A DNA stretch of 64,000 nt from a virus (taxonomy: Duplodnaviria; Heunggongvirae; Uroviricota; Caudoviricetes), in IMG/VR virus record IMGVR_UViG_3300028388_003891, positions 5,513-69,512 of that record; one strand, given 5' to 3'. Below, one piece after another: positions 28,948 through 60,482 of this stretch. A model generated the notes under the pieces. That model did not search any database. It was not told the DNA's origin and saw nothing but the letters and a program-made list of their open reading frames with translations. Both the position numbers and the translations under genes were made by a program. The number at the start of each line of letters is the position of its first letter. Within the stretch, counting starts at the first letter, position 1.

Positions 28948-29468
28948 TGAGTCTGCGTAATATAGCCCTTTCCACCAATCCAGCAGAGTTGTCTCATACT
29001 GAAGAGGATGATGTTCAGCCAAATGCTGTCGACATACGTCTCGATAAAGTGTGGCAAATTTCCAACGAGACGTTTACCCTCAGTGATAGTCACAAGGGGC
29101 ATCGTGGGTCCGAAGAGCTGTCGTTTACCCGTCATTTCCCCGACCATGAAGGCGAATGGATCGATCTATATCCAGGCAGCTATGAGTTTACCGCTAGAGG
29201 TACTGTGCTAGTTCCGCCTGGGTTCGCTGGGTGGGTAGTTACTCGAAGCACACTGAACCGTAATGGTGTCTTCATAACATCCGGCCTGTACGATAGCGGC
29301 TATCATGGAGTAATGGCCGGCGTAATACATGTATCTTGCGGTCCCTTTCTGGTTCAGCGAGGAACACGCATTGGTCAGTTTATACTTGTCGACGCTGAAA
29401 CATCTCATCAGTACGATGGCGATTACGGTTTGGGTAAAAAGCACGATGATAAGTACACGACTGCGTAG
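28947..29468 (+). CDS. dCTP deaminase / dUTPase-fold protein
   Basis: 'QPNAVDIRLD', 'VPPGFAGWVVTRSTLNRNGV', 'SGLYDSGYHG' and 'RIGQFIL' blocks characteristic of the Dcd/Dut beta-barrel. Its TAG stop (29466-29468) lies inside the following tRNA. Confidence 0.6.
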   Translation: MSLRNIALSTNPAELSHTEEDDVQPNAVDIRLDKVWQISNETFTLSDSHKGHRGSEELSFTRHFPDHEGEWIDLYPGSYEFTARGTVLVPPGFAGWVVTRSTLNRNGVFITSGLYDSGYHGVMAGVIHVSCGPFLVQRGTRIGQFILVDAETSHQYDGDYGLGKKHDDKYTTA

Positions 29469-29535
29469 CACAATCTGGTAGTGCGCTGAACTCTAAATTC
29501 ATGAGATAACGGTTCAAATCCGTTCGCAGTCACCA
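29459..29535 (+). tRNA. tRNA with anticodon CUA (amber-suppressor-like), CCA encoded
   Basis: Acceptor GACUGCG/CGCAGUC, D arm GCAC-AAUCUGGUA-GUGC, anticodon arm CUGAA-CUCUAAA-UUCAU (C27.U43 mismatch), T arm AACGG-UUCAAAU-CCGUU, A73-CCA. Confidence 0.5.
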
Positions 29536-31089: not shown

Positions 31090-31457
31090 TTGCATTTGCT
31101 GGTGGGGCGTTCCATTAACGAAATTCGATGAAGCACAACGAACGGTGCTAAGGACGGGGGTTCGATTCCCCCCACCTCCACCAAAAAGCATACTCTTCCC
31201 GCGAAAGCGGTGCGATGGAAGTCGTCATAATCAACCAAGGGAGTATGCTTTTTGATGGGGGTGCACTGGCTTCGACTTGGACTTAATAGCTTGTGTGGAG
31301 AATAGGTGCGGAAGCTACCTTAAACGCAACAAAGTAAAAAAGTGACGCAGCTAATGATGCTGTGTATGATGTGGCTCTAGCAGCCTGATCATACTGGGGA
31401 TTGACTATCCTTATTATCCAATAAGTCCGGGCAGGTTAAACCTGCCCGTTTTAGTTT
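31090..31457 (+). ncRNA. ssrA: Two-piece (circularly permuted) tmRNA gene: acceptor piece first, coding piece second
   Basis: Acceptor piece ends ...GGACGGGGGUUCGAUUCCCCC-CACCUCC-A-CCA at 31174. The coding piece starts at 31257 with GGGGGUG, which pairs with CACCUCC. The coding-piece head GGGGGUGCACUGGCUUCGAC resembles the tmRNA 5' head GGGGCUGAUUCUGGAUUCGAC. An in-frame tag ORF GCA GCU AAU GAU GCU GUG UAU GAU GUG GCU CUA GCA GCC UGA (31348-31388) encodes AANDAVYDVALAA. The 82-nt intervening segment forms a 13-bp hairpin. Terminator at 31427-31456. Confidence 0.75.
31427..31456 (+). terminator. Rho-independent terminator closing the tmRNA coding piece
   Basis: CCGGGCAGG-TTAAA-CCTGCCCG hairpin followed by a TTTTAGTTTT run. 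Confidence 0.65.
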
Positions 31458-31553
31458 TCTAATTGTAAACGGCCCCTTCTGTTGAATTACGTTTGATAGA
31501 TACGTGACTGTATGGTTGCTGAAAAACAGCAATCCTTTGAAATGGAGATCATT

Positions 31554-36378: not shown

Positions 36379-38913
36379 TTGGAGAATCATATGTATTGTG
36401 ACGTAACACGTATCAAAGACGATATTTGCGTACGTGGGTACACCCCCAGCGGTGAACGATACCAACGCCGCGTTCCATTTAAGCCAACGATGTACCTCCC
36501 ATCGTCCGATCCCACAGATTGGCGCACATTAGGTGGTGTACACGTAGCTCCTGTTATATGCGACTCAATGAGCGACGCAAGTCGTATGGTCAAAGAGTAT
36601 GAAGGCGTTGCACGCCTTGCAGTGTTTGGAATGGACAACTACGTCACGCAGTTCGTTGAGCAAGCATTCCCCGGTGATTTTAAATATGATATAACAAGCG
36701 TCAATGTTGTGTCGTTTGACATTGAGGTATACAGTCCCGATGGTTTTCCACACGCAAGTGAAGCTCAATATCCCGTTGTCTCCATCGCAGCTCATAGCTC
36801 TAAATTTGATCAGTATATTTTATGGGCGACAAAGGACTTCACGCCAACACAAGAGACTCCAACCAACCTGACTTTTGTTCGCTGTGATGATGAACACGAT
36901 TTGCTCAGCAAGTTTCTGAGCTGGTGGGAAGGCAGTGATACAAGTCCCGATGTTGTGACAGGGTGGAATGTCAAGCTGTTTGATATTCCGTACCTCGTTA
37001 ACCGCATACGACAAACAATGGGGGAAGCGCCAGCAAGACGTCTATCGCCATGGGGCTTTATTCGCGAACACGCAGTACAAATTGGCAATCGCTCCAACCA
37101 AGCGTTTGTATTAGCTGGCATTCAGATTCTCGATTACATCGAATTGTACCGCAAGTTTGCAGTGCTAACACTAGGCGTTCCCGAGTCGTACAAGCTCGAC
37201 CACATTGCGTCCCTCGTTCTCGGCCGTAAAAAGTTGTCATACGACGAGCATCGATCTCTGCACTCTCTATATGATAAAGATCCCAATCGCTTCTTCGATT
37301 ACAACATTCGCGACACGGAACTGATCGTTGAAATGGACCGTAAGCTCCAGTTGATCACGTTGGCTATAACAATCGCCTACAAAGCAGGGGCTCAATATAC
37401 AGACGCGTTCGGAACTACGGCTGTTTGGGATGCTTTAATATACAGGTCTCTCAATCAGCGCGGCATCGTCGTTCCCCCTAAGATAGTAGGAGCAAAACAG
37501 AATCTTGATGGCGCGTATGTTAAGACACCACAGTTAGGGCGACACAAGTGGGTCGCATCATTTGACCTCAATAGCCTGTACCCAATGACGATGATTCAGT
37601 ACAACATGTCTCCTGAAACAATCGTCGATACGTACAGCGATTTAACGCCCGAAAAGATTCTCGAGACGGATGGCCAAGCAGCTATTGATAGTTCGGTACC
37701 TAATTGCACCACCGCTGCAAACGGGATCCACTACACCACAAATCAGAAGGGGATCATTCCAGAGTTGATCGATAAGCTGTACAGCGATCGATCTCAGGCT
37801 AAGAAGGCAAAGATTGAACTAGACAAAAAGGTTCAACGAGCTCGTAATCCTGAAACAAAAGCTAAATTGGAAAAAGAGCGTGATCAGTTGGACAGCGCGC
37901 AGATGGCATTTAAGATTTTGATGAACAGCTGTTACGGAGCTCACGGCAGTCCGTACTTCCGCTATTTTGACATGCGAACAGCCAACGCAATTACTTCTTG
38001 TGGAAGACTGACGATTCGCTGGGCCGAGAAGGCTATCAACGAGCTACTGAACAAGATCCTTAAAACAGACAACGTCGACTATGTGATTGCAGCTGACACG
38101 GACTCGCTGTATATAAACATGGGTCCTCTTGTCGATATGATGGGCATCGGTGATCGTCCGGAAGACGAAGTTGTCACTATCATTGATCAAATATGCAACG
38201 ACAAGTTTGAACCGCACCTCGACCAAGCGTACGTTAAACTTGGAGAGGTGATGAGTGCATTTTCTCTGCGAATGAAGATGAAGCGCGAAGTGATTGCAAG
38301 TGGTGGAATATGGGTGGCTAAAAAGAGGTACACTCTTTTGGTGCATGATGATGAAGGAGTTCGATACGAAACACCGAAGCTCAAGATCATGGGCATTGAG
38401 GCTGTCAAATCGAGCACACCACAAGTGTGTCGCGACAAACTCAAAGAGGTGTTTCGTTTGCTGGTCAAAGGCAAGTTCGACGAAGCCATGGAGTTCTGTG
38501 AACAGTTTCGTGAGGATTTTAGGCAGCTAGAGCCACATGAGGTCGCCTCGCCTCGTTCTGCGAACAATATAAGCAAGTGGCAGGATTCACAAACGATATA
38601 CGGTAAAGGAACGCCGATACACATCAAAGGATCACTGCTATACAACAATTTCATCGAACAGGTTGATGAGACAGGTAATCAGTTTCCTCGTATTGGTGAT
38701 GGTGAAAAGATTAAGTTTATACCTCTGTTAAAGCCAAATCCAATTCGCGATACAGTGATATCCTTTCCAGACTATCTGCCTGAGGAGTTGAATCTTCACA
38801 AGTACCTTGACTACAATAGCCAATTCGAAAAGACCTTTATGTCCGTCGTCGATCACATGATCGAAGCGGCTGGTTGGTCTCGTCATCCCACCCTCGATGC
38901 TTTTTTTACATGA
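36379..38913 (+). CDS. DNA polymerase, family B (gp43)
   Basis: Exo I 'FDIE', motif A 'DLNSLYPM', KKRY 'VAKKRYTL', motif C 'AADTDSLYI'. 844 aa. Confidence 0.9.
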   Translation: MENHMYCDVTRIKDDICVRGYTPSGERYQRRVPFKPTMYLPSSDPTDWRTLGGVHVAPVICDSMSDASRMVKEYEGVARLAVFGMDNYVTQFVEQAFPGDFKYDITSVNVVSFDIEVYSPDGFPHASEAQYPVVSIAAHSSKFDQYILWATKDFTPTQETPTNLTFVRCDDEHDLLSKFLSWWEGSDTSPDVVTGWNVKLFDIPYLVNRIRQTMGEAPARRLSPWGFIREHAVQIGNRSNQAFVLAGIQILDYIELYRKFAVLTLGVPESYKLDHIASLVLGRKKLSYDEHRSLHSLYDKDPNRFFDYNIRDTELIVEMDRKLQLITLAITIAYKAGAQYTDAFGTTAVWDALIYRSLNQRGIVVPPKIVGAKQNLDGAYVKTPQLGRHKWVASFDLNSLYPMTMIQYNMSPETIVDTYSDLTPEKILETDGQAAIDSSVPNCTTAANGIHYTTNQKGIIPELIDKLYSDRSQAKKAKIELDKKVQRARNPETKAKLEKERDQLDSAQMAFKILMNSCYGAHGSPYFRYFDMRTANAITSCGRLTIRWAEKAINELLNKILKTDNVDYVIAADTDSLYINMGPLVDMMGIGDRPEDEVVTIIDQICNDKFEPHLDQAYVKLGEVMSAFSLRMKMKREVIASGGIWVAKKRYTLLVHDDEGVRYETPKLKIMGIEAVKSSTPQVCRDKLKEVFRLLVKGKFDEAMEFCEQFREDFRQLEPHEVASPRSANNISKWQDSQTIYGKGTPIHIKGSLLYNNFIEQVDETGNQFPRIGDGEKIKFIPLLKPNPIRDTVISFPDYLPEELNLHKYLDYNSQFEKTFMSVVDHMIEAAGWSRHPTLDAFFT

Positions 38914-50112: not shown

Positions 50113-50170
50113 AGTCCCCCTGATGAGTCTTATCGGAGACGAAACGCAAAGCTAAAGTAGCGTCGGGGAA
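50113..50170 (+). ncRNA. Hammerhead ribozyme 1 (type I, open stem I); predicted cleavage between 50164 and 50165
   Basis: GUCCCC-CUGAUGA-GUCU[UAUCGG]AGAC-GAAA-CGC[AAAGCUAAAGUA]GCG-UC^GGGGA. All core nucleotides are present (C3-A9, G12-A14, A15.1-U16.1, C17). Confidence 0.7.
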
Positions 50171-50275
50171 GAGAGAAGAAAATCTTCCCCCAGCTACCAC
50201 GAACTGTGAGCGTGGGAATCGCGGAGGGCAACAAGTCTCTTGTGACGGAAACCGATGCGACTTATCACAAATTAA

Positions 50276-50361
50276 CGCGGGATATACAAGCGGTCAACGT
50301 GATAGGGCTCATAACCCTATACCTTAGTGTTTCGTGGGTTCGAATCCCACTCCCGCAACCA
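50276..50361 (+). tRNA. tRNA-fMet-like (anticodon CAU), initiator features, unusual 14-nt variable region
   Basis: C1.A72 mismatch (CGCGGGA/UCCCGCA), anticodon stem with three G-C pairs (UAGGG-CUCAUAA-CCCUA), T arm GUGGG-UUCGAAU-CCCAC, A73-CCA. Confidence 0.55.
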
Positions 50362-50991
50362 AATTAACAGGCTGCCTTTCACATAGCCTGTTTTGACCGG
50401 CCCCTGTTTTTCCTCCTCCTTTTCGCAGGGGCCGGTCACCCTCTCCCCCGTTGCCCTCAATCTGACATTAAGAGATAATGTCTATGTTGAATTGAGGAGG
50501 CACCAATGAGCAAATACATTGTTTTCCAAATCGAAGTGACCCGCGCCATGGCCGACAAGATCGAGGTGTGATCGACATCAGAGAGTCGATAATGCCGACC
50601 CACGTCACACTGGCGATTGAAGACGGCCGCCTGATGGTCGTCGACGGCAGTGGGTATGACTTCATCATTGAGGAAGAAGATGAAACACAATCCAGTAGCT
50701 AAACACGCACACAAGTTCAACAAATGCGCCAAGCATGTTGACCGTAAGGCGCGTTCTAAGCGAGGATATCGCAAACACAGGAGAATTGATAATGGGTGTT
50801 GAGAACACAAATGTGGATACCAAAGAGCTCATGGTCGAGATTGATCTTGAACTTGGATCACTTGCGGCGCGGATCGCAACCGGCCTAACGTACAGCGAAA
50901 TCGTCGCGTTCGTTGAAATGATTGATAGCGAGGTATCCGACACCGAGTTTACGGACCAACTGATTAACGCCGTCCTACGCCTCAATGATTA

Positions 50992-51045
50992 ACTGCCCTG
51001 ATGAGTCTTACAGGAGACGAAACGCGCTGATAGCGCGTCGGCAGA
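50992..51045 (+). ncRNA. Hammerhead ribozyme 2 (type I); cleaves between 51039 and 51040, exactly at the tRNA-Tyr 5' end
   Basis: AACUGCC-CUGAUGA-GUCU[UACAGG]AGAC-GAAA-CGCGC[UGAUA]GCGCG-UC^GGCAGAG. Stem I is formed by the upstream CUGCC and the tRNA 5' acceptor strand GGCAG. Confidence 0.75.
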
Positions 51046-51121
51046 GTACACCCGTAACTGGTAGCGGCCCGCACTGTAACTGCGCATAACGTTGGGGGTT
51101 CGAATCCCTCCTCTGCCACCA
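51040..51121 (+). tRNA. tRNA (anticodon GUA, Tyr-type) with short variable region
   Basis: Acceptor GGCAGAG/CUCUGCC-A-CCA, anticodon arm (C)CGCA-CUGUAAC-UGCG(C), T arm GGGGG-UUCGAAU-CCCUC. D arm poorly paired. Confidence 0.55.
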
Positions 51122-51136
51122 AATTGAAAGGAGTTT

Positions 51137-51499
51137 GTGATGAATAAACGCTTCACGATTATCGCTGCGATAGTGATAGGCATCGGTAGTTTGTTTACTC
51201 TTTACGAAGGGGTCAAAGCTATCCGGCAGTATGCGTGGAACCATGAGGTTGTTGACGCTCGTCCCGTCGGTCCCGTTCGCACTGAGCAACGATTGATCGA
51301 ATGTGAGTATACAGGAATATGCTCTCGCTTTGATCCGCTGAACGGCGAGATGAGAACGGGGTTATCATCCTTTTGTCGCGGTCACCGTCCGGTCGTTGCT
51401 CGCATACAAGATGTGCAAGAGACGCTTCGTAACGGCGAGCAACGAATTCGAGAAGAGATAATGAGTCGCACAATCGTCGAGGGCGTAGCATGCAGATGA
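51137..51499 (+). CDS. Hypothetical membrane-anchored protein
   Basis: 120 aa with N-terminal TM helix. RBS AAAGGAG. Confidence 0.35.
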   Translation: MMNKRFTIIAAIVIGIGSLFTLYEGVKAIRQYAWNHEVVDARPVGPVRTEQRLIECEYTGICSRFDPLNGEMRTGLSSFCRGHRPVVARIQDVQETLRNGEQRIREEIMSRTIVEGVACR

Positions 51500-51533
51500 G
51501 CAAAGACGTAACCAAAGAGATTCTCAAAACGAA

Positions 51534-51607
51534 AGGGGATTAGCATAACGGTAGTGCGTCGGACTCTGACTCCGAATGTGGTGGTTCAATTCCACCATCC
51601 CCCGCCA
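51534..51607 (+). tRNA. tRNA-Gln (CUG)
   Basis: Anticodon arm UCGGA-CUCUGAC-UCCGA, T arm GGUGG-UUCAAUU-CCACC, acceptor AGGGGAU/AUCCCCC (A1.C72), G73-CCA. Confidence 0.6.
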
Positions 51608-51612
51608 ACAAA

Positions 51613-51688
51613 GCAGCTTTAGCAATGATGGTTCATGCGCTGGCCTGAAGTCCCAGATATCTCGGTTCGATCCCGAGGAGCTGCACCA
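51613..51688 (+). tRNA. tRNA-Phe (GAA)
   Basis: Acceptor GCAGCUU/GAGCUGC, anticodon loop CUGAAGU with C31.C39 mismatch, T arm CUCGG-UUCGAUC-CCGAG, A73-CCA. Confidence 0.55.
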
Positions 51689-51708
51689 AACAACAAAGGC
51701 GATGAGCA

Positions 51709-51969
51709 ATGTATGCAGTTCCCGAACGGTTTGATGTCCAGGCGCTTGGACGCACGATTACAGTGGTCTCCACGGCGAAGCCAGAAGATGGCGTGTATCA
51801 ATTGTGCGTAGAGATAGATGGCGAAATGGTACAGCTCGATACCTCGGTGCGAATAGAAGGACAGGAACTCTCATATATGATTCACGAGGAGGGGTATCAC
51901 GACATCTTGTTCCGTCTGGTTGCAGACGCAATTGAAGAACAGATGGGCCGTTCAGAAGCAAACAGCTAA
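51709..51969 (+). CDS. Hypothetical acidic protein
   Basis: 86 aa. Stop abuts tRNA 51971. Confidence 0.35.
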   Translation: MYAVPERFDVQALGRTITVVSTAKPEDGVYQLCVEIDGEMVQLDTSVRIEGQELSYMIHEEGYHDILFRLVADAIEEQMGRSEANS

Positions 51970-51970
51970 A

Positions 51971-52048
51971 GCGCCTGTAGCCCAATCAGGTAGAGGCAGC
52001 GGCTTTAAACCCCGTTCAGTGTGGGTTCGATCCCCTCCAGGCGCACCA
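51971..52048 (+). tRNA. tRNA with Leu anticodon UAA but class-I architecture (5-nt variable loop)
   Basis: Acceptor GCGCCUG/CAGGCGC, D stem GCC/GGC, anticodon arm GCGG(C)-UUUAAAC-(C)CCGU, T arm GUGGG-UUCGAUC-CCCUC, A73-CCA. Confidence 0.5.
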
Positions 52049-52082
52049 ACATCGGTTGACGACAACACGCTGGTAAGGGACA

Positions 52083-52301
52083 ATGAGTCTTTTGGAGGAT
52101 AAAACAATGGGTGAACGAACAATTCCTGCTCCAACAGAGCATCACTTCAGCTTTGCGACGGCAGTGGTCGATAATATGGTTCGCAACTGTGGAATCACAA
52201 GCTCCGGCGAAGACATCGATAAACTTAAAGACGCGATGGTTTCGTGCATTGCCCACCGTGACGCAGAGATCCTGTGGCTGCGCAAACTGGTGCATCCGTG
52301 A
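52083..52301 (+). CDS. Hypothetical protein
   Basis: 72 aa with RBS GGAGGA. Confidence 0.35.
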   Translation: MSLLEDKTMGERTIPAPTEHHFSFATAVVDNMVRNCGITSSGEDIDKLKDAMVSCIAHRDAEILWLRKLVHP

Positions 52302-52603
52302 TGTTGTACACTCCAGATAGATGGGTGTTGCTGGAAATCGAGCCGTACAAGTTGTACAAAGTGCTGGCGGGGTGGAATGGTGGTTATCTTTCGGCGGACG
52401 AATGGCGGATCAACTCCGGCATTAAAAGTCTGACCGATGAAGGCCAATATTTCACAGCAACAGGACACAGCGGCAGTGAATACCGTTTGTACAAGGATGC
52501 AGAGGGGTTCAATAAGATCAGCGCAGATGTGCTGTACAACCTCCAGAATGCTTATCCCCATATCGTCACTGTTTCTGCTGAACAATATTTTACGCGGGTG
52601 TAG
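52302..52603 (+). CDS. Hypothetical protein (start at the Met following the upstream stop)
   Basis: 100 aa. Ends with a TAG inside tRNA-Gly. Confidence 0.35.
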
Positions 52604-52669
52604 CTCAGTTGGTAGAGCATCTGGTTGCCAATCAGAAGGCCGTGGGATCGTGACCCATCACCCGCTCCA
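52594..52669 (+). tRNA. tRNA-Gly (GCC) with non-canonical T loop AUCGUGA
   Basis: Acceptor GCGGGUG/CACCCGC, D arm GCUC-AGUUGGUA-GAGC, anticodon arm UCUGG-UUGCCAA-UCAGA, U73-CCA. Overlaps the TAG stop of the upstream ORF. Confidence 0.65.
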
Positions 52670-52803
52670 AATTCTTGAATATGGAATGAGGAGAACTTAG
52701 TGAACAAACTTCGTAATCCGTACGATTCAAGGCAAGCGCCATCTGGGCGCGAATCTAAACAAAACGAACAACCCAGCCCATACGACGCGAGTGGTGTTCG
52801 TCG

Positions 52804-53100
52804 TTGGCTCGAACGGAAAACGAGGCGAAAACATCAAAAGTGAGATTGCTAATTTTTGCAGCGGTGCTGCTTTGTACAGCCTGCTCGACTACGCCGCCAG
52901 GAGTGACAAAACAGTGCGTACGTTACGAGTACAACAACGACTGGGAAATTGTTCAAATGGGCGGCTTCTACAGAGTAAAAGCGCCTCAGATGATATGCCG
53001 AAAATGGATGTATTATGAAAGTAGCAGTGACCGGTACGCGCCACGGAATGACTCGTCCACAAAGACAAATGGTGATGTCGACGATCCACCAGTAGACTGA
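52804..53100 (+). CDS. Small lipoprotein
   Basis: Signal peptide with lipobox 'LLCTAC'. Confidence 0.4.
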   Translation: MARTENEAKTSKVRLLIFAAVLLCTACSTTPPGVTKQCVRYEYNNDWEIVQMGGFYRVKAPQMICRKWMYYESSSDRYAPRNDSSTKTNGDVDDPPVD

Positions 53101-53101
53101 G

Positions 53102-53470
53102 TTGCATCAAGGATGCTGCAAAGGCGTTGATCGCGAATGCTACCTAATGGCAGCAGACAATCCAGACTACGACATAACGATTTACTCGTACCCACCAATT
53201 AATGATCACTATGCGATCAAGTGCCTCGGTCATGTCAATTACAAGCCACAGCCGTTCCTTGTACGCGATCGTGCTCTGGTAGATGCGGCGGATATTCTGC
53301 TATCGATGCCACTTACTGATTACGAGACATTTCGCAGTGGTACATGGTACACTACACGCTATGCTCTGCAGCAGGACAAGCCTGTCGTACTGATTCAACC
53401 TAACGGCACTAGTGTGCCTGCTGATGAAATTGAGAGATACTTACTACCTGGAAAATGGGGTGAAAGGTAA
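53102..53470 (+). CDS. Hypothetical protein (nucleoside 2-deoxyribosyltransferase-like fold?)
   Basis: 'ALVDAADILLSMP...TWYTTRYALQQDKPVVLI'. Weak call. Confidence 0.25.
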   Translation: MHQGCCKGVDRECYLMAADNPDYDITIYSYPPINDHYAIKCLGHVNYKPQPFLVRDRALVDAADILLSMPLTDYETFRSGTWYTTRYALQQDKPVVLIQPNGTSVPADEIERYLLPGKWGER

Positions 53471-54435
53471 TGGAATTCATCAAATACAGCTCGATTGAGA
53501 ATCACTACCGTGAGAAGGTTGTCGACTGGTATCGTGAAAATGGATTAGAAAACGTCGGATGGATCTTGACGGAGAAGATCCATGGCGCTAACTTTTCTTT
53601 CTGGTGCAACAGCAGCGAAGTCAAGGTCGCATCTCGTAACCAATGGGTCGACAGCACATTCTATAGCTGTCAGGACATCATCGACGCGTACACGCCCGTT
53701 GTGCTAGAGCTCGCTACTTTCTTCCCCAACAGCACTGTAGCTGTGTATGGGGAGCTGTACGGACCCGGTATTCAGAAGGGGGTCAATTACGGCGACAAAA
53801 AAGATTTCGTTGCCTTCGACATTCGAGTTGACGGATACTTCCTAGATCGTAATAAAGTACATGTGTACATCGCTGGTGCAAACCAGCTGACATTACAAAA
53901 GCACGGTCAGAGGTCCACCTTGATGGACGTTGTCCCTATTGTTGGCTCGACAGTGTCACTAACACAAGTGCTTGAGTTTGATAACGAGTTTGTATCTGTG
54001 CTTGGCCGTCTCAATGGTGTCGACGACGATGCCAACCTTGCTGAGGGATTCATTGCAACGCCAGTCGGCAAAGCGTACCAACGCATTGGCAGCGACCGTG
54101 TGATCCTCAAATCGAAAGGTGAAAAGTGGACAGAGAAAAGCAAGAAGGTAAAGACGCCTCGTGCTCCTGTTACTGAGCACCCACTGACATCAACGGTTGA
54201 GCAGTATGTCAACACCAACCGTGTCGATGCTGTCACAAGTAAGATGGGCCCGTTGACTCCAAAGGACTTTGGTCGGATCATTAGGGCTGTTTGTGATGAT
54301 GTCATTGATGACATGGTGAAGGACGGTGATGTTCGTAGCTGCTGGCGCGATGACGAAGAGACGAAAGACCTTGGCAAGGTTGTTAACAAAGTGGTAGTGC
54401 CTTTCCTCAAGAAAGAGCTGCTACCGACGTTGTAA
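53470..54435 (+). CDS. RNA ligase, Rnl2 family
   Basis: Nucleotidyltransferase motif I 'TEKIHGANF' (compare T4 Rnl2 'EKIHGTNF'). 321 aa. Embedded in the tRNA/ribozyme array. Confidence 0.65.
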   Translation: MEFIKYSSIENHYREKVVDWYRENGLENVGWILTEKIHGANFSFWCNSSEVKVASRNQWVDSTFYSCQDIIDAYTPVVLELATFFPNSTVAVYGELYGPGIQKGVNYGDKKDFVAFDIRVDGYFLDRNKVHVYIAGANQLTLQKHGQRSTLMDVVPIVGSTVSLTQVLEFDNEFVSVLGRLNGVDDDANLAEGFIATPVGKAYQRIGSDRVILKSKGEKWTEKSKKVKTPRAPVTEHPLTSTVEQYVNTNRVDAVTSKMGPLTPKDFGRIIRAVCDDVIDDMVKDGDVRSCWRDDEETKDLGKVVNKVVVPFLKKELLPTL

Positions 54436-54452
54436 CACGCTTGGCAGTGTAG

Positions 54453-54497
54453 GCGGGTGAGGAACCACGAACTGGATCCAGTGACCCCGCCGTTTTA
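54453..54497 (+). terminator. Terminator-like hairpin after the RNA ligase gene, leading into a TATAAAT box before tRNA-Glu
   Basis: GGCGGG...CCCGCC stem with an internal CTGGATCCAG palindrome, then GTTTTATAAAT. Confidence 0.4.
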
Positions 54498-54505
54498 TAA
54501 ATTAC

Positions 54506-54582
54506 GTCCCTATAGGTTAACAGGTTAGACCTTCAGGCTTTCAACCTGGCAGAGTGGGGTTCGAGTCCCCCTAGGGACACCA
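54506..54582 (+). tRNA. tRNA-Glu (UUC)
   Basis: Acceptor GUCCCUA/UAGGGAC, anticodon arm UCAGG-CUUUCAA-CCUGG, T loop UUCGAGU, A73-CCA. Confidence 0.7.
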
Positions 54583-54586
54583 AATT

Positions 54587-54686
54587 ACGTGCTTGGTGTA
54601 ATGCGTAGCATACCAAGACCGAACTGCGCGAACGCAGATGTAGGCAATCAAAATGGGAGGTCCAGGTTCGAATCCTGGGGCACGTA
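54587..54686 (+). other. tRNA-like element (about 100 nt) with canonical T arm and 3' acceptor strand but no recognisable anticodon arm; no CCA
   Basis: 5' ACGUGCU pairs with 3' GGCACGU-A. T arm CCAGG-UUCGAAU-CCUGG. Interior consists of two hairpins (CUUGGUGU...ACCAAG and CUGCG-CGAA-CGCAG). Confidence 0.3.
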
Positions 54687-54695
54687 ACTAATAAA

Positions 54696-54772
54696 CTGGG
54701 TATAGGGCAGTCTGGTAGCCTACCTCCCTTGGAAGGAGGATGTCGATGGTTCAAATCCATCTACCCAGACCA
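54696..54772 (+). tRNA. tRNA-Pro (UGG)
   Basis: C1-G72 acceptor CUGGGUA/UACCCAG, anticodon arm CCUCC-CUUGGAA-GGAGG, T arm GAUGG-UUCAAAU-CCAUC, A73-CCA. Confidence 0.75.
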
Positions 54773-54924
54773 ATTTTGGCTTGTACGCAAGCGGTGACGG
54801 AAGCAGCTTGCAGAATGTGTTGAACGTCAGATGTGGGTAATACTAGAATCGCTATCTAGAACTAAGACATAGCCACGATGCCGGAGATCCGTGGGGTGCG
54901 TCGTGGCGGCCAAAATTCAACAGA

Positions 54925-55000
54925 GGTGCCGTAGCTTAACGGGGAAAGGCTCAGACTGTCAATCTGAGAGATACGGGTTCGAGACCCGTCGGTACCGCCA
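54925..55000 (+). tRNA. tRNA-Asp (GUC)
   Basis: Anticodon arm UCAGA-CUGUCAA-UCUGA, T arm ACGGG-UUCGAGA-CCCGU, acceptor GGUGCCG/CGGUACC, G73-CCA. Confidence 0.7.
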
Positions 55001-55018
55001 AACTAAAAGGAGAAGAAA

Positions 55019-55267
55019 ATGGACGACAACCAGTTGTATTCCATCAGTTGTATTAGCTTCTTTTTTACGATATGCGTCATAGCGTTTACAATCGGATCTT
55101 GTAATACCAGAGAAGCAGAGCAGGAAACGGAGAGGTATCGAATCGAAATGGATCGATACGATCCTGGTTCGATTGACTATTTGGAAGCGCAGTGTATCGA
55201 GAAGTCGGGACTCCATGCTTCGATACTTCGGTTCTGTGAAGAAGCGCTGGAGAAAGCAAACGGATAA
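55019..55267 (+). CDS. Small membrane protein inside the tRNA array
   Basis: 82 aa with RBS AAGGAG and one TM helix. Confidence 0.4.
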   Translation: MDDNQLYSISCISFFFTICVIAFTIGSCNTREAEQETERYRIEMDRYDPGSIDYLEAQCIEKSGLHASILRFCEEALEKANG

Positions 55268-55268
55268 T

Positions 55269-55345
55269 GCGCCCCTACGCAAATTGGCAAAGCGGCTGGC
55301 TTTAGAAGCCGGTGTTTCTCGGTTCGAGTCCGAGGGGGCGTACCA
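55269..55345 (+). tRNA. tRNA with Leu anticodon UAG, class-I architecture
   Basis: Acceptor GCGCCCC/GGGGCGU (G1.U72), anticodon arm CUGGC-UUUAGAA-GCCGG, 5-nt variable loop, T arm CUCGG-UUCGAGU-CCGAG, A73-CCA. Confidence 0.5.
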
Positions 55346-55351
55346 AACAAT

Positions 55352-55428
55352 GGGTCGTTAGCTTAATTGAGTAAAGCAGCAGGCTTTTAACCTGCCAGAT
55401 CTGAGTTCGAGTCTCAGGCGGCCTACCA
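55352..55428 (+). tRNA. tRNA-Lys (UUU)
   Basis: D arm GCUU-AAUUGAGUA-AAGC, anticodon arm GCAGG-CUUUUAA-CCUGC, T arm CUGAG-UUCGAGU-CUCAG, A73-CCA. Confidence 0.7.
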
Positions 55429-55568
55429 AATCAATATGGCGCTAACTCGTGCCCCGACCACCAGATCGGACTACAATGCTGGTAGGCACCTAGGCCTATA
55501 CTCGCCCCAGTCGAGTGAACGTGTGACAGTTACGACGACACGACCATAATGGAACTGGGACAAATTCT

Positions 55569-55644
55569 TGGCATGTAGCATTGAAGGTAATGCGCCGCAC
55601 TGTTAATGCGGAGGAATCCGGTTCGATCCCGGACGTGCCAGCCA
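55569..55644 (+). tRNA. tRNA-Asn (GUU)
   Basis: Acceptor UGGCAUG/CGUGCCA, D arm GCAU-UGAAGGUA-AUGC, anticodon arm CCGCA-CUGUUAA-UGCGG, T arm UCCGG-UUCGAUC-CCGGA, G73-CCA. Confidence 0.7.
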
Positions 55645-55910
55645 ATTATGGTCCGTTGCATTGGGATGCATCCCTTTGCTGATAAACGAAGGGGAGTAAG
55701 TCGGGCACGCGACCGACCGGAAGCCGGATATAAAGCTGTCATCTGACATGGTGGCAGTCGGACCGCCATACAATGGGGCGAAGTGACGTAGACGCGCGTT
55801 AAGAACAGCCGATCTGAGCCCCACCATAAATAGGTCAACACACTACAGGTTGACAACATGATAGCTTTCAAGGACCATATTCAAGAATCAAGAACAGCTA
55901 AAGTTTTAAC

Positions 55911-55984
55911 GCCCGGTTAGCTCAATGGGAGAGCTACTGCCTTACAAGCAGAGGACGGTGGTTCGATTCCATCACTGGGTACCA
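55911..55984 (+). tRNA. tRNA-Val (UAC)
   Basis: D arm GCUC-AAUGGGA-GAGC, anticodon arm (A)CUGC-CUUACAA-GCAG(A), T arm GGUGG-UUCGAUU-CCAUC, A73-CCA. Confidence 0.65.
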
Positions 55985-56016
55985 AGAATAGTGGAGGGCT
56001 AATGCCCATCTGCGAG

Positions 56017-56084
56017 CTCCACAACGACTGGCAAATGGCGCTGGGGTGTCCCGGAACGGAGGTTCGATTCCTCCCAGTTCGTAC
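56017..56084 (+). other. Truncated tRNA-like element (acceptor-like stem, one hairpin, canonical T arm), no CCA
   Basis: T arm GGAGG-UUCGAUU-CCUCC followed by CAGUUCG-U. Imperfect 5' partner CGACUGG. Preceded by a GUGGAG...CUCCAC nested hairpin at 55991-56023. Confidence 0.25.
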
Positions 56085-56245
56085 TACAACACCGGTTAGT
56101 GATACGAGTAACGATTAAGTTACAGTTGTGGAGCGGTACTATTAGGAATGGCTACAGCATCTAATTACTACGCAGCCAAAGAAAGCCATTCCGTAACAAT
56201 TAAGAGTGTTTGCAGCAACTAATCTTCCATGCTAAGGACGAGGCC

Positions 56246-56302
56246 GCAGGTTCGAATCCTGCTCCCCGCCATCGACGGTGGGGGTAGCTCAGCGGTAGAG
56301 CG
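56246..56302 (+). other. tRNA half-fragments: T arm plus 3' acceptor (CCUGC-UCCCCGC-C) followed 7 nt later by a tRNA 5' half (GGUGGGGG-UA-GCUC-AGCGGUA-GAGC-GC)
   Basis: The 3' strand UCCCCGC(C) upstream pairs perfectly with GGUGGGG downstream, a permuted or fragmented arrangement. The 5' half resembles tRNA-Ala. Confidence 0.3.
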
Positions 56303-56328
56303 CGTAGAAATACACTCTGTTTATTTTT

Positions 56329-56400
56329 GGGGGTGCCGTATGGGACGGACTTAGCCCTTGCAAGGCTGATGGTCGGGATCGTTACCCGATACCTCCACCA
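56329..56400 (+). tRNA. tRNA-Ala-like (UGC) with G3.U70 but a degenerate D arm; possibly a disrupted gene
   Basis: Acceptor GGGGGUG/UACCUCC (G3.U70), anticodon arm UAGCC-CUUGCAA-GGCUG, T arm UCGGG-AUCGUUA-CCCGA, A73-CCA. Preceded by a U-run and the tRNA 5' half fragment. Confidence 0.4.
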
Positions 56401-56406
56401 AACATT

Positions 56407-56484
56407 CACCGTGTAGCTCAGTCTGGTCAGAGCGTTCGCTTTGGAAGCGTAGGGCCACTGGTTCGAATCCAGTCATGGTGACCA
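56407..56484 (+). tRNA. tRNA-Pro (UGG), second copy with different sequence
   Basis: C1-G72 acceptor CACCGUG/CAUGGUG, D arm GCUC-AGUCUGGUCA-GAGC, anticodon arm UUCGC-UUUGGAA-GCGUA (one mismatch), T arm ACUGG-UUCGAAU-CCAGU, A73-CCA. Confidence 0.55.
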
Positions 56485-56664
56485 AATTGGTTCGTGGACT
56501 ACCGTAAGACGCCTACGTTTAGGTGCCGCGACCCCACGAACAAGTCGTGGGACGACAAGCGCGAATGTGTTATATACTTCACACGGACGGTGGCGTCTGT
56601 TGTTGTGAAAGTCGTTAACTAGCGTTGAGCTGATCACTCTAGTCCCGCGGCGGCGCTATTAAAT

Positions 56665-56740
56665 GGGTCGTTAGCTTAACTGGCAAAGCTCCGGTCTCCA
56701 AAACCGGCAGATCGCGGTTCGAAGCCGTGGCGGCCCGCCA
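56665..56740 (+). tRNA. tRNA-Trp (CCA)
   Basis: Anticodon arm CCGGU-CUCCAAA-ACCGG, D arm GCUU-AACUGGCA-AAGC, T arm CGCGG-UUCGAAG-CCGUG, G73-CCA. Confidence 0.7.
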
Positions 56741-56817
56741 AACAGCTCATAAGGTGAGCAGTTGCGACTGGTACATATTCGCCGCCACGCCATATTTTCT
56801 CTTGCCGGAAGATAAAC

Positions 56818-56893
56818 GCTCCTAAAGCATTGCTGGCCGATGCACGGGTCTTGTAAGCCTGAGAACTCAGTTCGATTCTGAGTAGGAGCACCA
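56818..56893 (+). tRNA. tRNA-Thr (UGU)
   Basis: Acceptor GCUCCUA/UAGGAGC, D arm GCAU-UGCUGGCCG-AUGC, anticodon arm CGGGU-CUUGUAA-GCCUG, T arm CUCAG-UUCGAUU-CUGAG, A73-CCA. Confidence 0.65.
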
Positions 56894-56897
56894 ACAT

Positions 56898-56973
56898 GCC
56901 CTCAAAGCATTGCCGATTGATGCGCGAGTTTCGTAAACTTGATAACTGCGTTTGATTCGCAGTGAGGGCTCCA
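56898..56973 (+). tRNA. tRNA-Thr (CGU)
   Basis: Acceptor GCCCUCA/UGAGGGC, anticodon arm CGAGU-UUCGUAA-ACUUG, T arm CUGCG-UUUGAUU-CGCAG, U73-CCA. Confidence 0.65.
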
Positions 56974-57022
56974 ATTGAGCAACTGCAGAATGTCTGCGGT
57001 GATATACAGGTAGGACGCATAA

Positions 57023-57099
57023 GCCGCAGTGACCCAATTGGCAGAGGTGCCAGTTTCAAAAGCTGGATGTTGTCGGTTCGACTCCGACCTGCGGTACCA
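57023..57099 (+). tRNA. tRNA with Leu anticodon CAA, class-I architecture
   Basis: Acceptor GCCGCAG/CUGCGGU, anticodon arm CCAGU-UUCAAAA-GCUGG, 5-nt variable loop, T arm GUCGG-UUCGACU-CCGAC, A73-CCA. Confidence 0.5.
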
Positions 57100-57184
57100 A
57101 ACTACGACGTCGAGCTCAAGATAACACCGGGGACCGGCGTGTGGGAAGGCTATTTGGAATACGGACTGCTTATAAAATGGTTAT

Positions 57185-57259
57185 AGGGATGTAGCGCAAT
57201 TGGTAGAGCAGCGGAGTTTGATTCCGCAGATTCCGGTTCGAATCCGGACATCCCTTCCA
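57185..57259 (+). tRNA. tRNA-Gln (UUG)
   Basis: Acceptor AGGGAUG/CAUCCCU, anticodon arm GCGGA-GUUUGAU-UCCGC, T arm UCCGG-UUCGAAU-CCGGA, U73-CCA. TATAAAAT box about 15 nt upstream. Confidence 0.65.
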
Positions 57260-57347
57260 AGGACAGTAAAATGAACGTACTACGAGAGTACGAACACCAC
57301 AACAAGCTGGTACTCAGTATTTTAATGGATGCTTTAGCTGATCCACC

Positions 57348-57422
57348 GGGCCGGTAGCTTAATGGTAGAGCAGTGCCCTCATAAGGCAACGGTTGTGGGT
57401 TCGATTCCCTCCCGGCCCACCA
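57348..57422 (+). tRNA. tRNA-Met (CAU), elongator type, or Ile2 if lysidinylated
   Basis: Acceptor GGGCCGG/CCGGCCC, anticodon arm (G)UGCC-CUCAUAA-GGCA(A), T arm GUGGG-UUCGAUU-CCCUC, A73-CCA. Confidence 0.6.
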
Positions 57423-57517
57423 GTTACGTAACGCAGGCCGCCCCTGCGACACTTGGGTAGCGCCCAAAACCCCTCTCGAGGACTAGAGAGGCAAAACCAA
57501 AGGTCAACCAATTCAAT

Positions 57518-57593
57518 GCCCTCGTAGCTTAACGGATAGAGCGACTCGCTACGAACGAGTTAGGTGGGAGTTCAATTCTCTCCGAGGGTGCCA
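57518..57593 (+). tRNA. tRNA-Arg (ACG)
   Basis: Acceptor GCCCUCG/CGAGGGU, anticodon arm ACUCG-CUACGAA-CGAGU, T arm GGGAG-UUCAAUU-CUCUC, G73-CCA. Confidence 0.7.
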
Positions 57594-57739
57594 AACGTAG
57601 TTCGTGTGAGCAACCGGTTGTCTGCAGACACCAACGGGAAACGAACTGGCCGGGACAGTGAGATGCTCACACATCACTGATCCACCAATTATGGGGTGAG
57701 GGCGCGCGACTAAGGAATACCTGATCCCCACCATACAAC

Positions 57740-57815
57740 GACGCGATGGCTCGAGTGGTTAGGCCGCCGCCTGCAAAGCGGAAGAATGTCGGTTCGATTC
57801 CGACTCGCGTCTCCA
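57740..57815 (+). tRNA. tRNA-Cys (GCA)
   Basis: Acceptor GACGCGA/UCGCGUC, anticodon arm GCCGC-CUGCAAA-GCGGA (27.43 mismatch), T arm GUCGG-UUCGAUU-CCGAC, U73-CCA. Confidence 0.6.
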
Positions 57816-57821
57816 AACAAT

Positions 57822-57915
57822 GGAAGGTAATGCAGTGCCGATGGTGGCGCGACTGGCCTTGAAAACCAGGTCCCGGCTAAAACCGGGTGGGGTTCGACTC
57901 CTCTGCCTTCCGCCA
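57822..57915 (+). tRNA. tRNA-Ser (UGA), class II with long variable arm
   Basis: Acceptor GGAAGGU/GCCUUCC, anticodon arm CUGG(C)-CUUGAAA-(A)CCAG, variable arm CCCGG-CUAAAA-CCGGG, T loop UUCGACU, G73-CCA. Confidence 0.7.
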
Positions 57916-57932
57916 ACATAGGAGATGGCAAC

Positions 57933-58190
57933 ATGGAAAAGTTTGCAGTGCTTGCCATTACGGCAGGCTTAATCGGTTTGGGGCTAATCCTCATCGCCCT
58001 TGCAATGTCGAAAATTTCAATCCCAGAATGGTTCTTCCGCACACAGGATGGTGTGCGTATTGGAGTGCGTACAGACGTGTTGGGCAACACGAAAGTGCGA
58101 GTTGACTTTGCTGACAAAACAACACGCGCGCTGATCTACAAACGAGCCAAAGCTGTTAACGACCGTGTGACTATGAGTGCACTGCGTTGA
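57933..58190 (+). CDS. Small membrane protein
   Basis: 85 aa with RBS AGGAG. One TM helix (AVLAITAGLIGLGLILIALA). Confidence 0.4.
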   Translation: MEKFAVLAITAGLIGLGLILIALAMSKISIPEWFFRTQDGVRIGVRTDVLGNTKVRVDFADKTTRALIYKRAKAVNDRVTMSALR

Positions 58191-58340
58191 CCTGACAGCC
58201 GGGATTGGAGACAATAAGTACTGATTTGGGCCATTTCGAAAATTGCTGAATTGCTATGTGTGGCCCCGTTTTGCGGCTATATAGAAAGAAGACCGAGGAG
58301 CATAAGCGTAAAATCGCTGAATCTCTACGGAATAGAAAAC

Positions 58341-58417
58341 GCAGGACTGGTGTTTAACGGCTAGCATCTCTGGCTTCCAACCAGAAGGTAGGAGTTCGAG
58401 TCTCCTGTTCTGCTCCA
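58341..58417 (+). tRNA. tRNA-Gly (UCC)
   Basis: Acceptor GCAGGAC/GUUCUGC, anticodon arm UCUGG-CUUCCAA-CCAGA, T arm AGGAG-UUCGAGU-CUCCU, U73-CCA. Confidence 0.65.
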
Positions 58418-58437
58418 AATAATGTCGAGGACAGATC

Positions 58438-58776
58438 GTGGATAATCTGGTTGGAAACCGTTACAATCTGTATGGTGTGTGGGACGACCACATCAAACTG
58501 AACGATACCGTGTACCGTATCGACGTAGACCCGTTTGATGGCTATCGATCCTACCTCAATGGGGTTACGGCGGTACTGCAGACGCCAGAGATGGTGTTTT
58601 CGACGTTGCCCATAGCTGAAATCGTGGTGCACGAAGATCGCACGGAGTGCAAAAACGGATACATCTTGAAAGACGACCTAGGTCACGTGTGGCTTGAGCT
58701 CGGTACCGATCACCACGACAGTTGGTATCCGTATGTGTACATGCGGTATAATCCCAAAGAACCAGATAACGTATGA
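58438..58776 (+). CDS. Hypothetical protein
   Basis: 112 aa. Confidence 0.35.
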   Translation: MDNLVGNRYNLYGVWDDHIKLNDTVYRIDVDPFDGYRSYLNGVTAVLQTPEMVFSTLPIAEIVVHEDRTECKNGYILKDDLGHVWLELGTDHHDSWYPYVYMRYNPKEPDNV

Positions 58777-58777
58777 T

Positions 58778-58855
58778 GGTGGTCGTAGCTCAATTGGTTA
58801 GAGCGTCGGTTTGTGACACCGAAGGCCGAGGGTTCGATCCCCTCCGATCACCCCA
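58778..58855 (+). tRNA. tRNA-His (GUG) with encoded G-1 pairing with C73
   Basis: G-1 at 58778, acceptor GUGGUCG/CGAUCAC, D arm GCUC-AAUUGGUUA-GAGC, anticodon arm UCGGU-UUGUGAC-ACCGA, T arm GAGGG-UUCGAUC-CCCUC, C73-CCA. Confidence 0.75.
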
Positions 58856-58931
58856 AATTAACGACGACTGCAGCCCGATATACAGAGAAGAATAAATACT
58901 GTCCCACAATTCAATTTATTAACACCGATGA

Positions 58932-59008
58932 GCCCTCGTAGCTTAACTGGATAGAGCAACGGAATTCTACTCCGTTTGATGTGGGTTCGAATCCTACCGA
59001 GGGTGCCA
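58932..59008 (+). tRNA. tRNA-Arg (UCU)
   Basis: Acceptor GCCCUCG/CGAGGGU, anticodon arm ACGGA-AUUCUAC-UCCGU, T arm GUGGG-UUCGAAU-CCUAC, G73-CCA. Confidence 0.7.
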
Positions 59009-59010
59009 AT

Positions 59011-59298
59011 TTGAAATACGATCTGCCAGCATTATATGATGAGCTGAGCCCAAAACAAAGACGAGACGTCCGCCTACAATATGTTGAGCAACAACAAGGC
59101 AAGTGCTATTGGTGCAACCATGACCTCAACCAGGATCCTCCAATTTCGATACTTAATGAATGGATCAACTGGGACCTATTTCCCGACGGGTTCCGAAAAC
59201 ATCCGATCCATCTGCAGCACGACCACGATACGGGACTGACGGAGGGCGCCGTGCATATGAGATGTAATGCCTATATGTGGCAGTATCGTGGACGGTAA
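59011..59298 (+). CDS. Small HNH-like endonuclease (CxxC...HxxH motifs); TTG start just after the tRNA
   Basis: 'CYWCNHDL...HLQHDHDTGLTEGAVHMRCNAY'. The ORF-track ATG start at 58981 lies inside the tRNA, so a TTG with a GAGGGTG RBS was used. Confidence 0.35.
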   Translation: MKYDLPALYDELSPKQRRDVRLQYVEQQQGKCYWCNHDLNQDPPISILNEWINWDLFPDGFRKHPIHLQHDHDTGLTEGAVHMRCNAYMWQYRGR

Positions 59299-59348
59299 TA
59301 TATCTGTATAGTAGAATTTGGGCTAATATACCGATATAGTAGAATTAT

Positions 59349-59423
59349 GGCTTCATAGCTCAATGGCAAGAGCACTCGGCCGATAACCGGGAGATCTAAG
59401 TTCGATTCTTAGTGAAGCTACCA
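59349..59423 (+). tRNA. tRNA-Ile (GAU)
   Basis: Acceptor GGCUUCA/UGAAGCU, D arm GCUC-AAUGGCAA-GAGC, anticodon arm CUCGG-CCGAUAA-CCGGG, T arm CUAAG-UUCGAUU-CUUAG, A73-CCA. Confidence 0.7.
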
Positions 59424-59428
59424 AACAC

Positions 59429-59503
59429 GCCCCTGTAGTACAACCGGTAGTACACCACCTTGGTAAGGTGGAGAACGTGGGTCGGGACCACGCTGGGGCA
59501 CCA
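59429..59503 (+). tRNA. tRNA-Thr (GGU) with non-canonical T loop GUCGGGA
   Basis: D arm GUAC-AACCGGUA-GUAC, anticodon arm CCACC-UUGGUAA-GGUGG, T arm CGUGG-GUCGGGA-CCACG, acceptor GCCCCUG/CUGGGGC (one mismatch), A73-CCA. Confidence 0.6.
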
Positions 59504-59510
59504 AACTAAA

Positions 59511-59588
59511 GCCTGAGTACCCCAATTGGCAGAGGGGCGAGATCGAGAATCTCGTTAGGTGTGGGTTCGAGTCCCACCTCAGGTACCA
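59511..59588 (+). tRNA. tRNA with Leu anticodon GAG, class-I architecture
   Basis: Acceptor GCCUGAG/CUCAGGU, D arm CCCC-AAUUGGCAGA-GGGG, anticodon arm CGAGA-UCGAGAA-UCUCG (C33), T arm GUGGG-UUCGAGU-CCCAC, A73-CCA. Confidence 0.5.
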
Positions 59589-59869
59589 ACGCGTGCAACC
59601 TGTGTTACGTTGCAAACGTGCACACGGTCATCCACCTTGATGCGCAATTGCGCTCCGACGTTGATCTGCTGGTCATTCGTATCGAGCTCGACGTCACTAT
59701 TTGGACGCAGCTTTAACGTGCAATCAGATTCGACGACCCAGTCGCCTCGTCGGTCAGTCTGAACGAGTACGACTGACGGGGCAAACCACACTGAGCGAAT
59801 CTCCGTTGGGTGTGGTGCGGCAAAGGCCGCTGTTGACAAAAGTGCTAATGCTAGTAGAAGGTATTTCAC
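59579..59869 (-). CDS. Small secreted protein (signal peptide MKYLLLALALLSTAAFA)
   Basis: 96 aa on the minus strand. The hairpin at 59590-59625 may terminate it. Confidence 0.4.
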   Translation of the reverse strand: MKYLLLALALLSTAAFAAPHPTEIRSVWFAPSVVLVQTDRRGDWVVESDCTLKLRPNSDVELDTNDQQINVGAQLRIKVDDRVHVCNVTQVARVGT

Positions 59870-59930
59870 AATAGGCTCCTATGAGTGTATATAAGGTATA
59901 TATGCTCTATACATCTTCTCGGAATACATT

Positions 59931-60080
59931 ATGAGTAAAAAGGCGAAAGATTCACAGCTCCTCATCAAAGTTAACAAAGAGGACAAGAAAGCCTTCATTG
60001 AAATATGTGAATCGCAAGACACGACTGCAAGTCGTGAGATCCGCAGATTCATTTCACGCACTATCAAAAAACATGGGTGA
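59931..60080 (+). CDS. Small ribbon-helix-helix-like protein (49 aa, not in ORF track)
   Basis: 'KVNKEDKKAFIEICESQDTTASREIRRFI' beta-strand/helix pattern typical of Arc/CopG/ParD-like RHH proteins. 7 nt upstream of the next ORF. Confidence 0.3.
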   Translation: MSKKAKDSQLLIKVNKEDKKAFIEICESQDTTASREIRRFISRTIKKHG

Positions 60081-60086
60081 TGTATT

Positions 60087-60383
60087 ATGACGAACATTAA
60101 GCGGGACGACGTGCAACAGTCCTTTACGAACCGCCGTAACGAAATCGCGAACAGGCTTGAGGCATCTCTCTTTGGGGCACGTAACGAAGACATTACGATG
60201 AGCCCTCGCGCCCTTGAAGCGGTTGAGGTGTGCGCGGAGGGGATCGATACGATGGGCAAGTACATTGACTATTTGGAAGCTGCCCTACATAAGGCGCGCA
60301 CACGTGTAAAGGACCTCGAGCGCATCACAGCATCACCACAAGACGTCACTGTTGTCAAAGATGGCGCGCAGGTGCGACTATAG
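60087..60383 (+). CDS. Hypothetical protein downstream of the RHH gene
   Basis: 98 aa. Ends with a TAG abutting tRNA-Ser. Confidence 0.3.
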   Translation: MTNIKRDDVQQSFTNRRNEIANRLEASLFGARNEDITMSPRALEAVEVCAEGIDTMGKYIDYLEAALHKARTRVKDLERITASPQDVTVVKDGAQVRL

Positions 60384-60390
60384 CTATATT

Positions 60391-60482
60391 GGAAGGTTGC
60401 CAGAGAGGTCGATTGGGGCTCCCTGCTAAGGAGTTGACCCTCTTATGAGGGTCCGAGAGTTCGAATCTCTCACCTTCCGCCA
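60391..60482 (+). tRNA. tRNA-Ser (GCU), class II
   Basis: Acceptor GGAAGGU/ACCUUCC, anticodon arm GCUCC-CUGCUAA-GGAGU, variable arm GACCCUC-UUAU-GAGGGUC, T arm GAGAG-UUCGAAU-CUCUC, G73-CCA. Confidence 0.7.

Follow-up and report, generated by a model that had tools for sequence, protein, structure and literature searches.

Hammerhead ribozymes cleave RNA so as to leave 5'-OH and 2',3'-cyclic phosphate ends. At physiological Mg2+, minimal hammerheads cut slowly; a contact between loop I and loop II speeds cutting at low Mg2+. In laboratory hammerhead-tRNA fusions, a hammerhead is placed 5' of a tRNA and forms its stem I with tRNA bases 1-5, resulting in a precise tRNA 5' end. Mature 5' ends can also arise without RNase P in Nanoarchaeum, where the placement of the promoter gives leaderless tRNAs. 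Hammerheads are known in both phages and bacteria, and some of the phage examples self-cleave in vitro (Perreault et al., 2011; PMC3088659).

In the present work, a 64,000-nt stretch of viral DNA (the window) was analyzed, which corresponds to G000:5513-69512 of an IMG/VR record (87,243 bp; CheckV completeness 47%). The source record is, as judged from its sequence, a T4-like myophage. Pfam matched a Gp23 major capsid protein, a tail sheath protein and a family-B DNA polymerase (Table 1), and also a UvsW-like helicase, a DnaB-like helicase and an SbcC-like ATPase. About 28 tRNAs called by ARAGORN or Rfam form an array at 50276-60482. ARAGORN called a tRNA-Pyl with the amber-suppressor-like CUA anticodon at window 29459-29535, and such a gene in a T4-like phage may be a hint of amber stop-codon recoding. 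A tmRNA gene with the tag peptide DAANDAVYDVALAA was located at window 31091-31479.

Sequence inspection and structure search revealed a full hammerhead core with three stems at window 50993-51044 (Table 1). A complete core had been claimed by the sequence-only reading of this DNA, and all the parts it named (CUGAUGA, stem II, GAAA, stem III and GUC) could be located. Stem II consists of four Watson-Crick pairs and one U-G pair, while stem III opens with A15.1-U16.1 (A51022-U51038) and has 6-7 bp depending on the counting at the GAU loop. The A15.1-U16.1 pair and H17 (C51039), which are expected of a hammerhead, were present, as were the three helices with stems of 5, 5 and 6-7 bp. No extended stem I appeared in the folds and no tertiary contact between loop I and loop II (or pseudoknot) was found; a loop I-loop II contact is impossible because the 5 bp of stem I are open-ended and not closed by a loop. 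In layout, the element is a minimal hammerhead ribozyme of type I, with predicted cleavage. Rfam alone would give no hammerhead label, since the scores of both models, Hammerhead_1 (18.3 bits against a gathering threshold of 34, E = 0.097) and RAGATH-1 (19.4 bits against 56.3), fell under their thresholds. The name is based on the match to the consensus core and on the conservation of the helices. When the whole window was shuffled 50 times with its dinucleotide content kept, hammerheads with stems of at least 4/3/4 bp were found in none of the shuffles, compared with two in the real window. The bare motif CTGANGAGTC was not enriched within the window, and enrichment was seen only for the full three-helix structure.

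Table 1. Positions of the features in the window (1 is its first nucleotide).
Feature	Position	Strand	Remarks
Tail sheath	413-2185		Pfam
Gp23 major capsid	14048-15394		Pfam
Family-B DNA polymerase	36379-38913		Pfam
Second hammerhead	50115-50169	+	Related to the 50993-51044 element; same core; predicted cut 50164/50165
Strong hairpin GGGGAAGA...UCUUCCCC	50165-50190	+	Directly 3' of the predicted cut of the second hammerhead
ORF upstream of the hammerhead, 85 aa	50735-50992	+	No Pfam match; TAA at 50990-50992, directly before the hammerhead
Stem I, 5' strand CUGCC	50993-50997	+	Complements tRNA bases 1-5 (GGCAG, 51040-51044); 5 bp
Core CUGAUGA (C3-A9)	50998-51004	+	Agrees with the CUGANGA consensus; joins stems I and II
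Stem II GUCUU/GAGAC, loop ACAG	51005-51018	+	G51005-U51009 with A51015-C51018
G12-A13-A14 and A15.1 (GAAA)	51019-51022	+	G12-A14 at 51019-51021
Stem III ACGCGCU/AGCGCGU, loop GAU	51022-51038	+	A51022-U51028 with A51032-U51038
Predicted cut site	51039-51040	+	Between C17 (C51039) and tRNA base 1 (G51040)
tRNA-Tyr (GUA)	51040-51121	+	Rfam 40.4 bits; stem I of the hammerhead takes its 3' strand from bases 1-5
Rnl2-family RNA ligase	53470-54435	+	Pfam RNA_ligase and T4_Rnl2_C; inside the tRNA array

The earlier description of stem I as CUGCC paired with the first five nucleotides (GGCAG) of a tRNA with anticodon GUA was confirmed by the sequence and by Rfam. The Rfam tRNA match spans 51040-51118, aligning the first model position with 51040, and CCA is encoded up to 51121. 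The predicted hammerhead cut (C51039/G51040) coincides exactly with the 5' end of tRNA-Tyr, as had been claimed from its position. ARAGORN failed to call this tRNA-Tyr even with relaxed settings, and Rfam recovered it. Both this tRNA and its hammerhead-linked homologues have an apparent mismatch, C27:C43, where the anticodon stem has its base, and the hammerhead-linked tRNA-Tyr genes carry one D-arm base more than most phage tRNA-Tyr. The mismatch and the extra base may be the reason why ARAGORN overlooks some of these genes.

The second hammerhead of the window is followed directly by neither a tRNA nor an ORF start. Instead, a strong hairpin begins at its predicted cut, and the 3' arm of this hairpin (UCCCC) matches the 5' strand of the hammerhead's own stem I. 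For their stem I, both hammerheads of the window use the 5' arm of the structure that follows them. Beyond these two, no further copies were found in the 87,243-bp record.

Whether hammerhead-tRNA junctions recur in relatives had been raised by the sequence-only reading, and a search gave a positive answer. A scan of viral contigs with the core and stem II pattern yielded 21 loci, and a wider scan for the family yielded more than 118 loci, representing about 104 distinct hammerheads. Only a minority of them were tied to tRNAs. A hammerhead followed by tRNA-Tyr, with the predicted cut on tRNA base 1, was found in five units from four records: the one in the window and four further units in three other viral records. 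L011 has two tandem units, the first tRNA of which was not called by ARAGORN; L017 has one unit, and so does L135, where it was found by a pattern joining the hammerhead 3' end to the tRNA D-arm. All the units predicted to cut at a tRNA start carry tRNA-Tyr (GUA). The L011 record is a 347-kb jumbo phage (94% complete), and the Gp23-like capsids of the L011 and L017 records share only about 34-35% identity with that of the window, which indicates recurrence of the arrangement among T4-like phages that are only distantly related. However, a hammerhead was present at only 4 of the 82 phage tRNA-Tyr genes sampled, so most relatives manage without it. At the DNA level, megablast against phage genomes returned only tRNA-Gly matches in Ruegeria phages, and the matches of a distant blastn search with hammerhead plus tRNA were limited to the T-arm stretches of many tRNAs. 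Other structured RNAs were observed in contigs of the same survey. RAGATH-14 RNAs scored above the Rfam gathering threshold in L038, L057, L076 and L129, phage contigs which also have hammerheads of this family and tRNA arrays, and L010 (IMG/VR contig 3300010885_008904) has a permuted tmRNA (RF04321) with a family hammerhead in a phage tRNA array.

The presence in distantly related T4-like phages, the tandem pair in L011 and the constant association with tRNA-Tyr could also mean that hammerhead and tRNA-Tyr form a mobile cassette, spread by gene transfer or recombination, in which the ribozyme may be of more use to the cassette than to translation in the host phage. We consider this very unlikely as the main explanation. 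No mobility genes and no flanking repeats were found, phage tRNA genes often move without a ribozyme, and mobility would in any case be compatible with a function in processing. What can be stated from these comparisons is that the hammerhead-tRNA-Tyr unit recurs as a cassette among T4-like phages, so far seen with tRNA-Tyr only.

The helices of six related hammerheads were then compared. At pair 3 of stem I, the units have G-C, C-G, A-U or U-A, and both partners are likewise exchanged at pairs 2 and 4. Pair 4 of stem II is U-A in some hammerheads and C-G in others, and the sequence of stem III is wholly different between units with the pairing retained over 6-7 bp. In all five units, stem I pairs with bases 1-5 of its own tRNA (GGCAG, GCCAG, GCGGG, GGUAG and GCAGG). 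Since stems I and III change on both sides and yet pair, selection maintains both the folded structure and the predicted cleavage position at the start of the tRNA. A trivial origin of the stem I pairing, with the upstream strand being a copy of the acceptor 3' strand, was considered and rejected: the two strands differ in three of the five units. Resemblance to the acceptor strand is itself uninformative, because any partner of bases 1-5 must resemble it, and it is the register that is informative. Selection on the register of the predicted cut provides the principal evidence for a ribozyme shaped to generate the 5' end of the tRNA.

The constant register bears on a different role of the element, namely that the hammerhead serves mainly to trim the mRNA of the upstream gene at its 3' end, with the cut landing on the tRNA start only by coincidence. 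The hammerhead of the window directly follows the stop codon of the upstream ORF, and the same placement, directly 3' of the stop codon of an ORF of at least 50 aa, was found for 53 of the 104 family members. This placement of about half of the family fits intergenic processing, and an mRNA ending in 2',3'-cyclic phosphate would be shielded from 3' exonucleases. However, in both units of L011 and in L017 the hammerhead comes after a tRNA rather than an ORF. Family hammerheads elsewhere are predicted to cut at varied intergenic positions, whereas the predicted cut falls on tRNA base 1 in five of five units and stem I tracks the 5' sequence of each tRNA. mRNA trimming as the main role is unlikely in our opinion, though it does not exclude tRNA processing and both products may matter.

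How the hammerhead might act on tRNA-Tyr was explored by folding. A partial transcript ending just past stem I folded into the complete hammerhead (MFE z-score -1.9). In equilibrium folding of successive transcript lengths, the probability of stem I was about 0.7-0.97 in the window and L017 while tRNA bases 5-77 emerge, and about 0.05-0.08 in the full precursor, where stem I is lost because the 7-bp acceptor stem takes bases 1-5. The values during transcription were lower in L011 and L135 (0.1-0.4). Because the finished acceptor stem out-competes stem I, cutting would be expected during transcription. The ribozyme would fold once G51044 is transcribed and then cut C51039/G51040, within an interval of about 75 nt that would be closed by synthesis of the tRNA 3' acceptor strand. 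Alternatively, cleavage could occur later through slow breathing of the acceptor stem. The expected products are a tRNA-Tyr with a mature 5' end carrying 5'-OH and an upstream RNA ending in 2',3'-cyclic phosphate. Among public sequencing runs, none was listed with RNA from this region, which speaks neither for nor against expression or cleavage. Uncut precursors that keep the leader would remain normal substrates of RNase P, so that the host enzyme could act as a backup.

The main weakness of this processing model is that no tertiary contact through loop I is available, and the minimal hammerhead may be too slow for the roughly 1-2 s of transcription. Together with the Rfam scores below thresholds and a stem I that is mostly gone once the tRNA is complete, this minimal architecture could mean that the element is a relic without activity, or cuts too slowly to be of consequence, and that tRNA-Tyr is matured by host RNase P alone. 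We give this reading a low though appreciable probability. The co-changes of stems I and III in five units of distantly related phages argue against it, and, unless the fold is selected for, a cut register held constant on tRNA base 1 is difficult to account for. On balance we lean, with modest confidence, towards the view that the hammerhead provides 5' maturation of tRNA-Tyr independently of RNase P during transcription, with RNase P as the backup. The sequence-only reading had proposed ribozyme-driven 5' processing that replaces RNase P; structure, recurrence and both-sided changes speak for the first part of this proposal, but not for the replacement. A ribozyme acting first with RNase P behind it is likelier, because a precursor bearing the leader still suits RNase P.

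The fate of the 5'-OH end was considered with regard to the RNA ligases and kinase of the phage. The Rnl2-family ligase gene, which had been placed about 2.4 kb downstream, is real and supported by Pfam, and its ORF starts about 2.35 kb beyond the end of tRNA-Tyr. The substrates of Rnl2 are 5'-phosphate and 3'-OH ends in a duplex. A link of this ligase to the ribozyme products, as the earlier reading had hinted, is unlikely because Rnl2 cannot join 5'-OH and 2',3'-cyclic phosphate ends. RtcB was also considered as the ligase for hammerhead ends, and no RtcB was found in the phage record. Just outside the window, G000:74219-75140 and 75705-77300 encode a nicotinate phosphoribosyltransferase (NAPRTase) and, next to it, a 163-aa Pnk-like kinase with an AAA_33 domain and a ligase of the Rnl1 type (RNA_lig_T4_1). 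The ORFs of the kinase and of the Rnl1-type ligase overlap by about 80 nt, which is possibly a split Pnk or a frameshift. It is a speculative idea that the Pnk-like kinase could phosphorylate the 5'-OH of the tRNA. A complete route, in which T4-like phages mature tRNA-Tyr by the cis-acting hammerhead without RNase P and the Pnk-like kinase then phosphorylates the 5'-OH, seems improbable to us. If true, maturation would be owned by the phage and its supply of tRNA-Tyr would be independent of host RNase P, which could be useful, for example, if RNase P or the leader were blocked by a host defence.

If the ribozyme does process tRNA-Tyr, the cleavage by RNase P, a highly conserved step, would have a natural self-cleaving RNA alternative. 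It would also give a clear biological role to phage hammerheads, many of which lack an assigned function. Furthermore, tRNAs with 5'-OH ends in infected cells would raise questions on EF-Tu binding and on phage kinases. In the literature searched, no report of a natural hammerhead that makes a tRNA 5' end was found, which is not proof of novelty. The recurring hammerhead-tRNA-Tyr cassette places a known class of ribozymes in a new context.

The element shares the CUGANGA, GAAA and U16.1-H17 core, the three helices and the type I layout with the hammerheads described earlier (Perreault et al., 2011; PMC3088659). It differs from them in that the first bases of the tRNA complete stem I and that the predicted cut makes the tRNA 5' end, a linkage to tRNA that was not described there, and in having no tertiary loop interaction. 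With RNase P, the predicted cut has in common the phosphodiester bond (at G51040) and the resulting 5' end. However, RNase P is a host enzyme that acts in trans and leaves a 5'-phosphate, whereas the hammerhead would act in cis through co-transcriptional folding, the predicted products being a tRNA that starts with 5'-OH and a leader that ends in 2',3'-cyclic phosphate. The difference from Nanoarchaeum lies in the step that sets the tRNA 5' end, which is the start of transcription there and predicted self-cleavage in the phage. The laboratory hammerhead-tRNA fusions have the same design, but stem I is usually longer in the fusions, and the phage version is natural and minimal.
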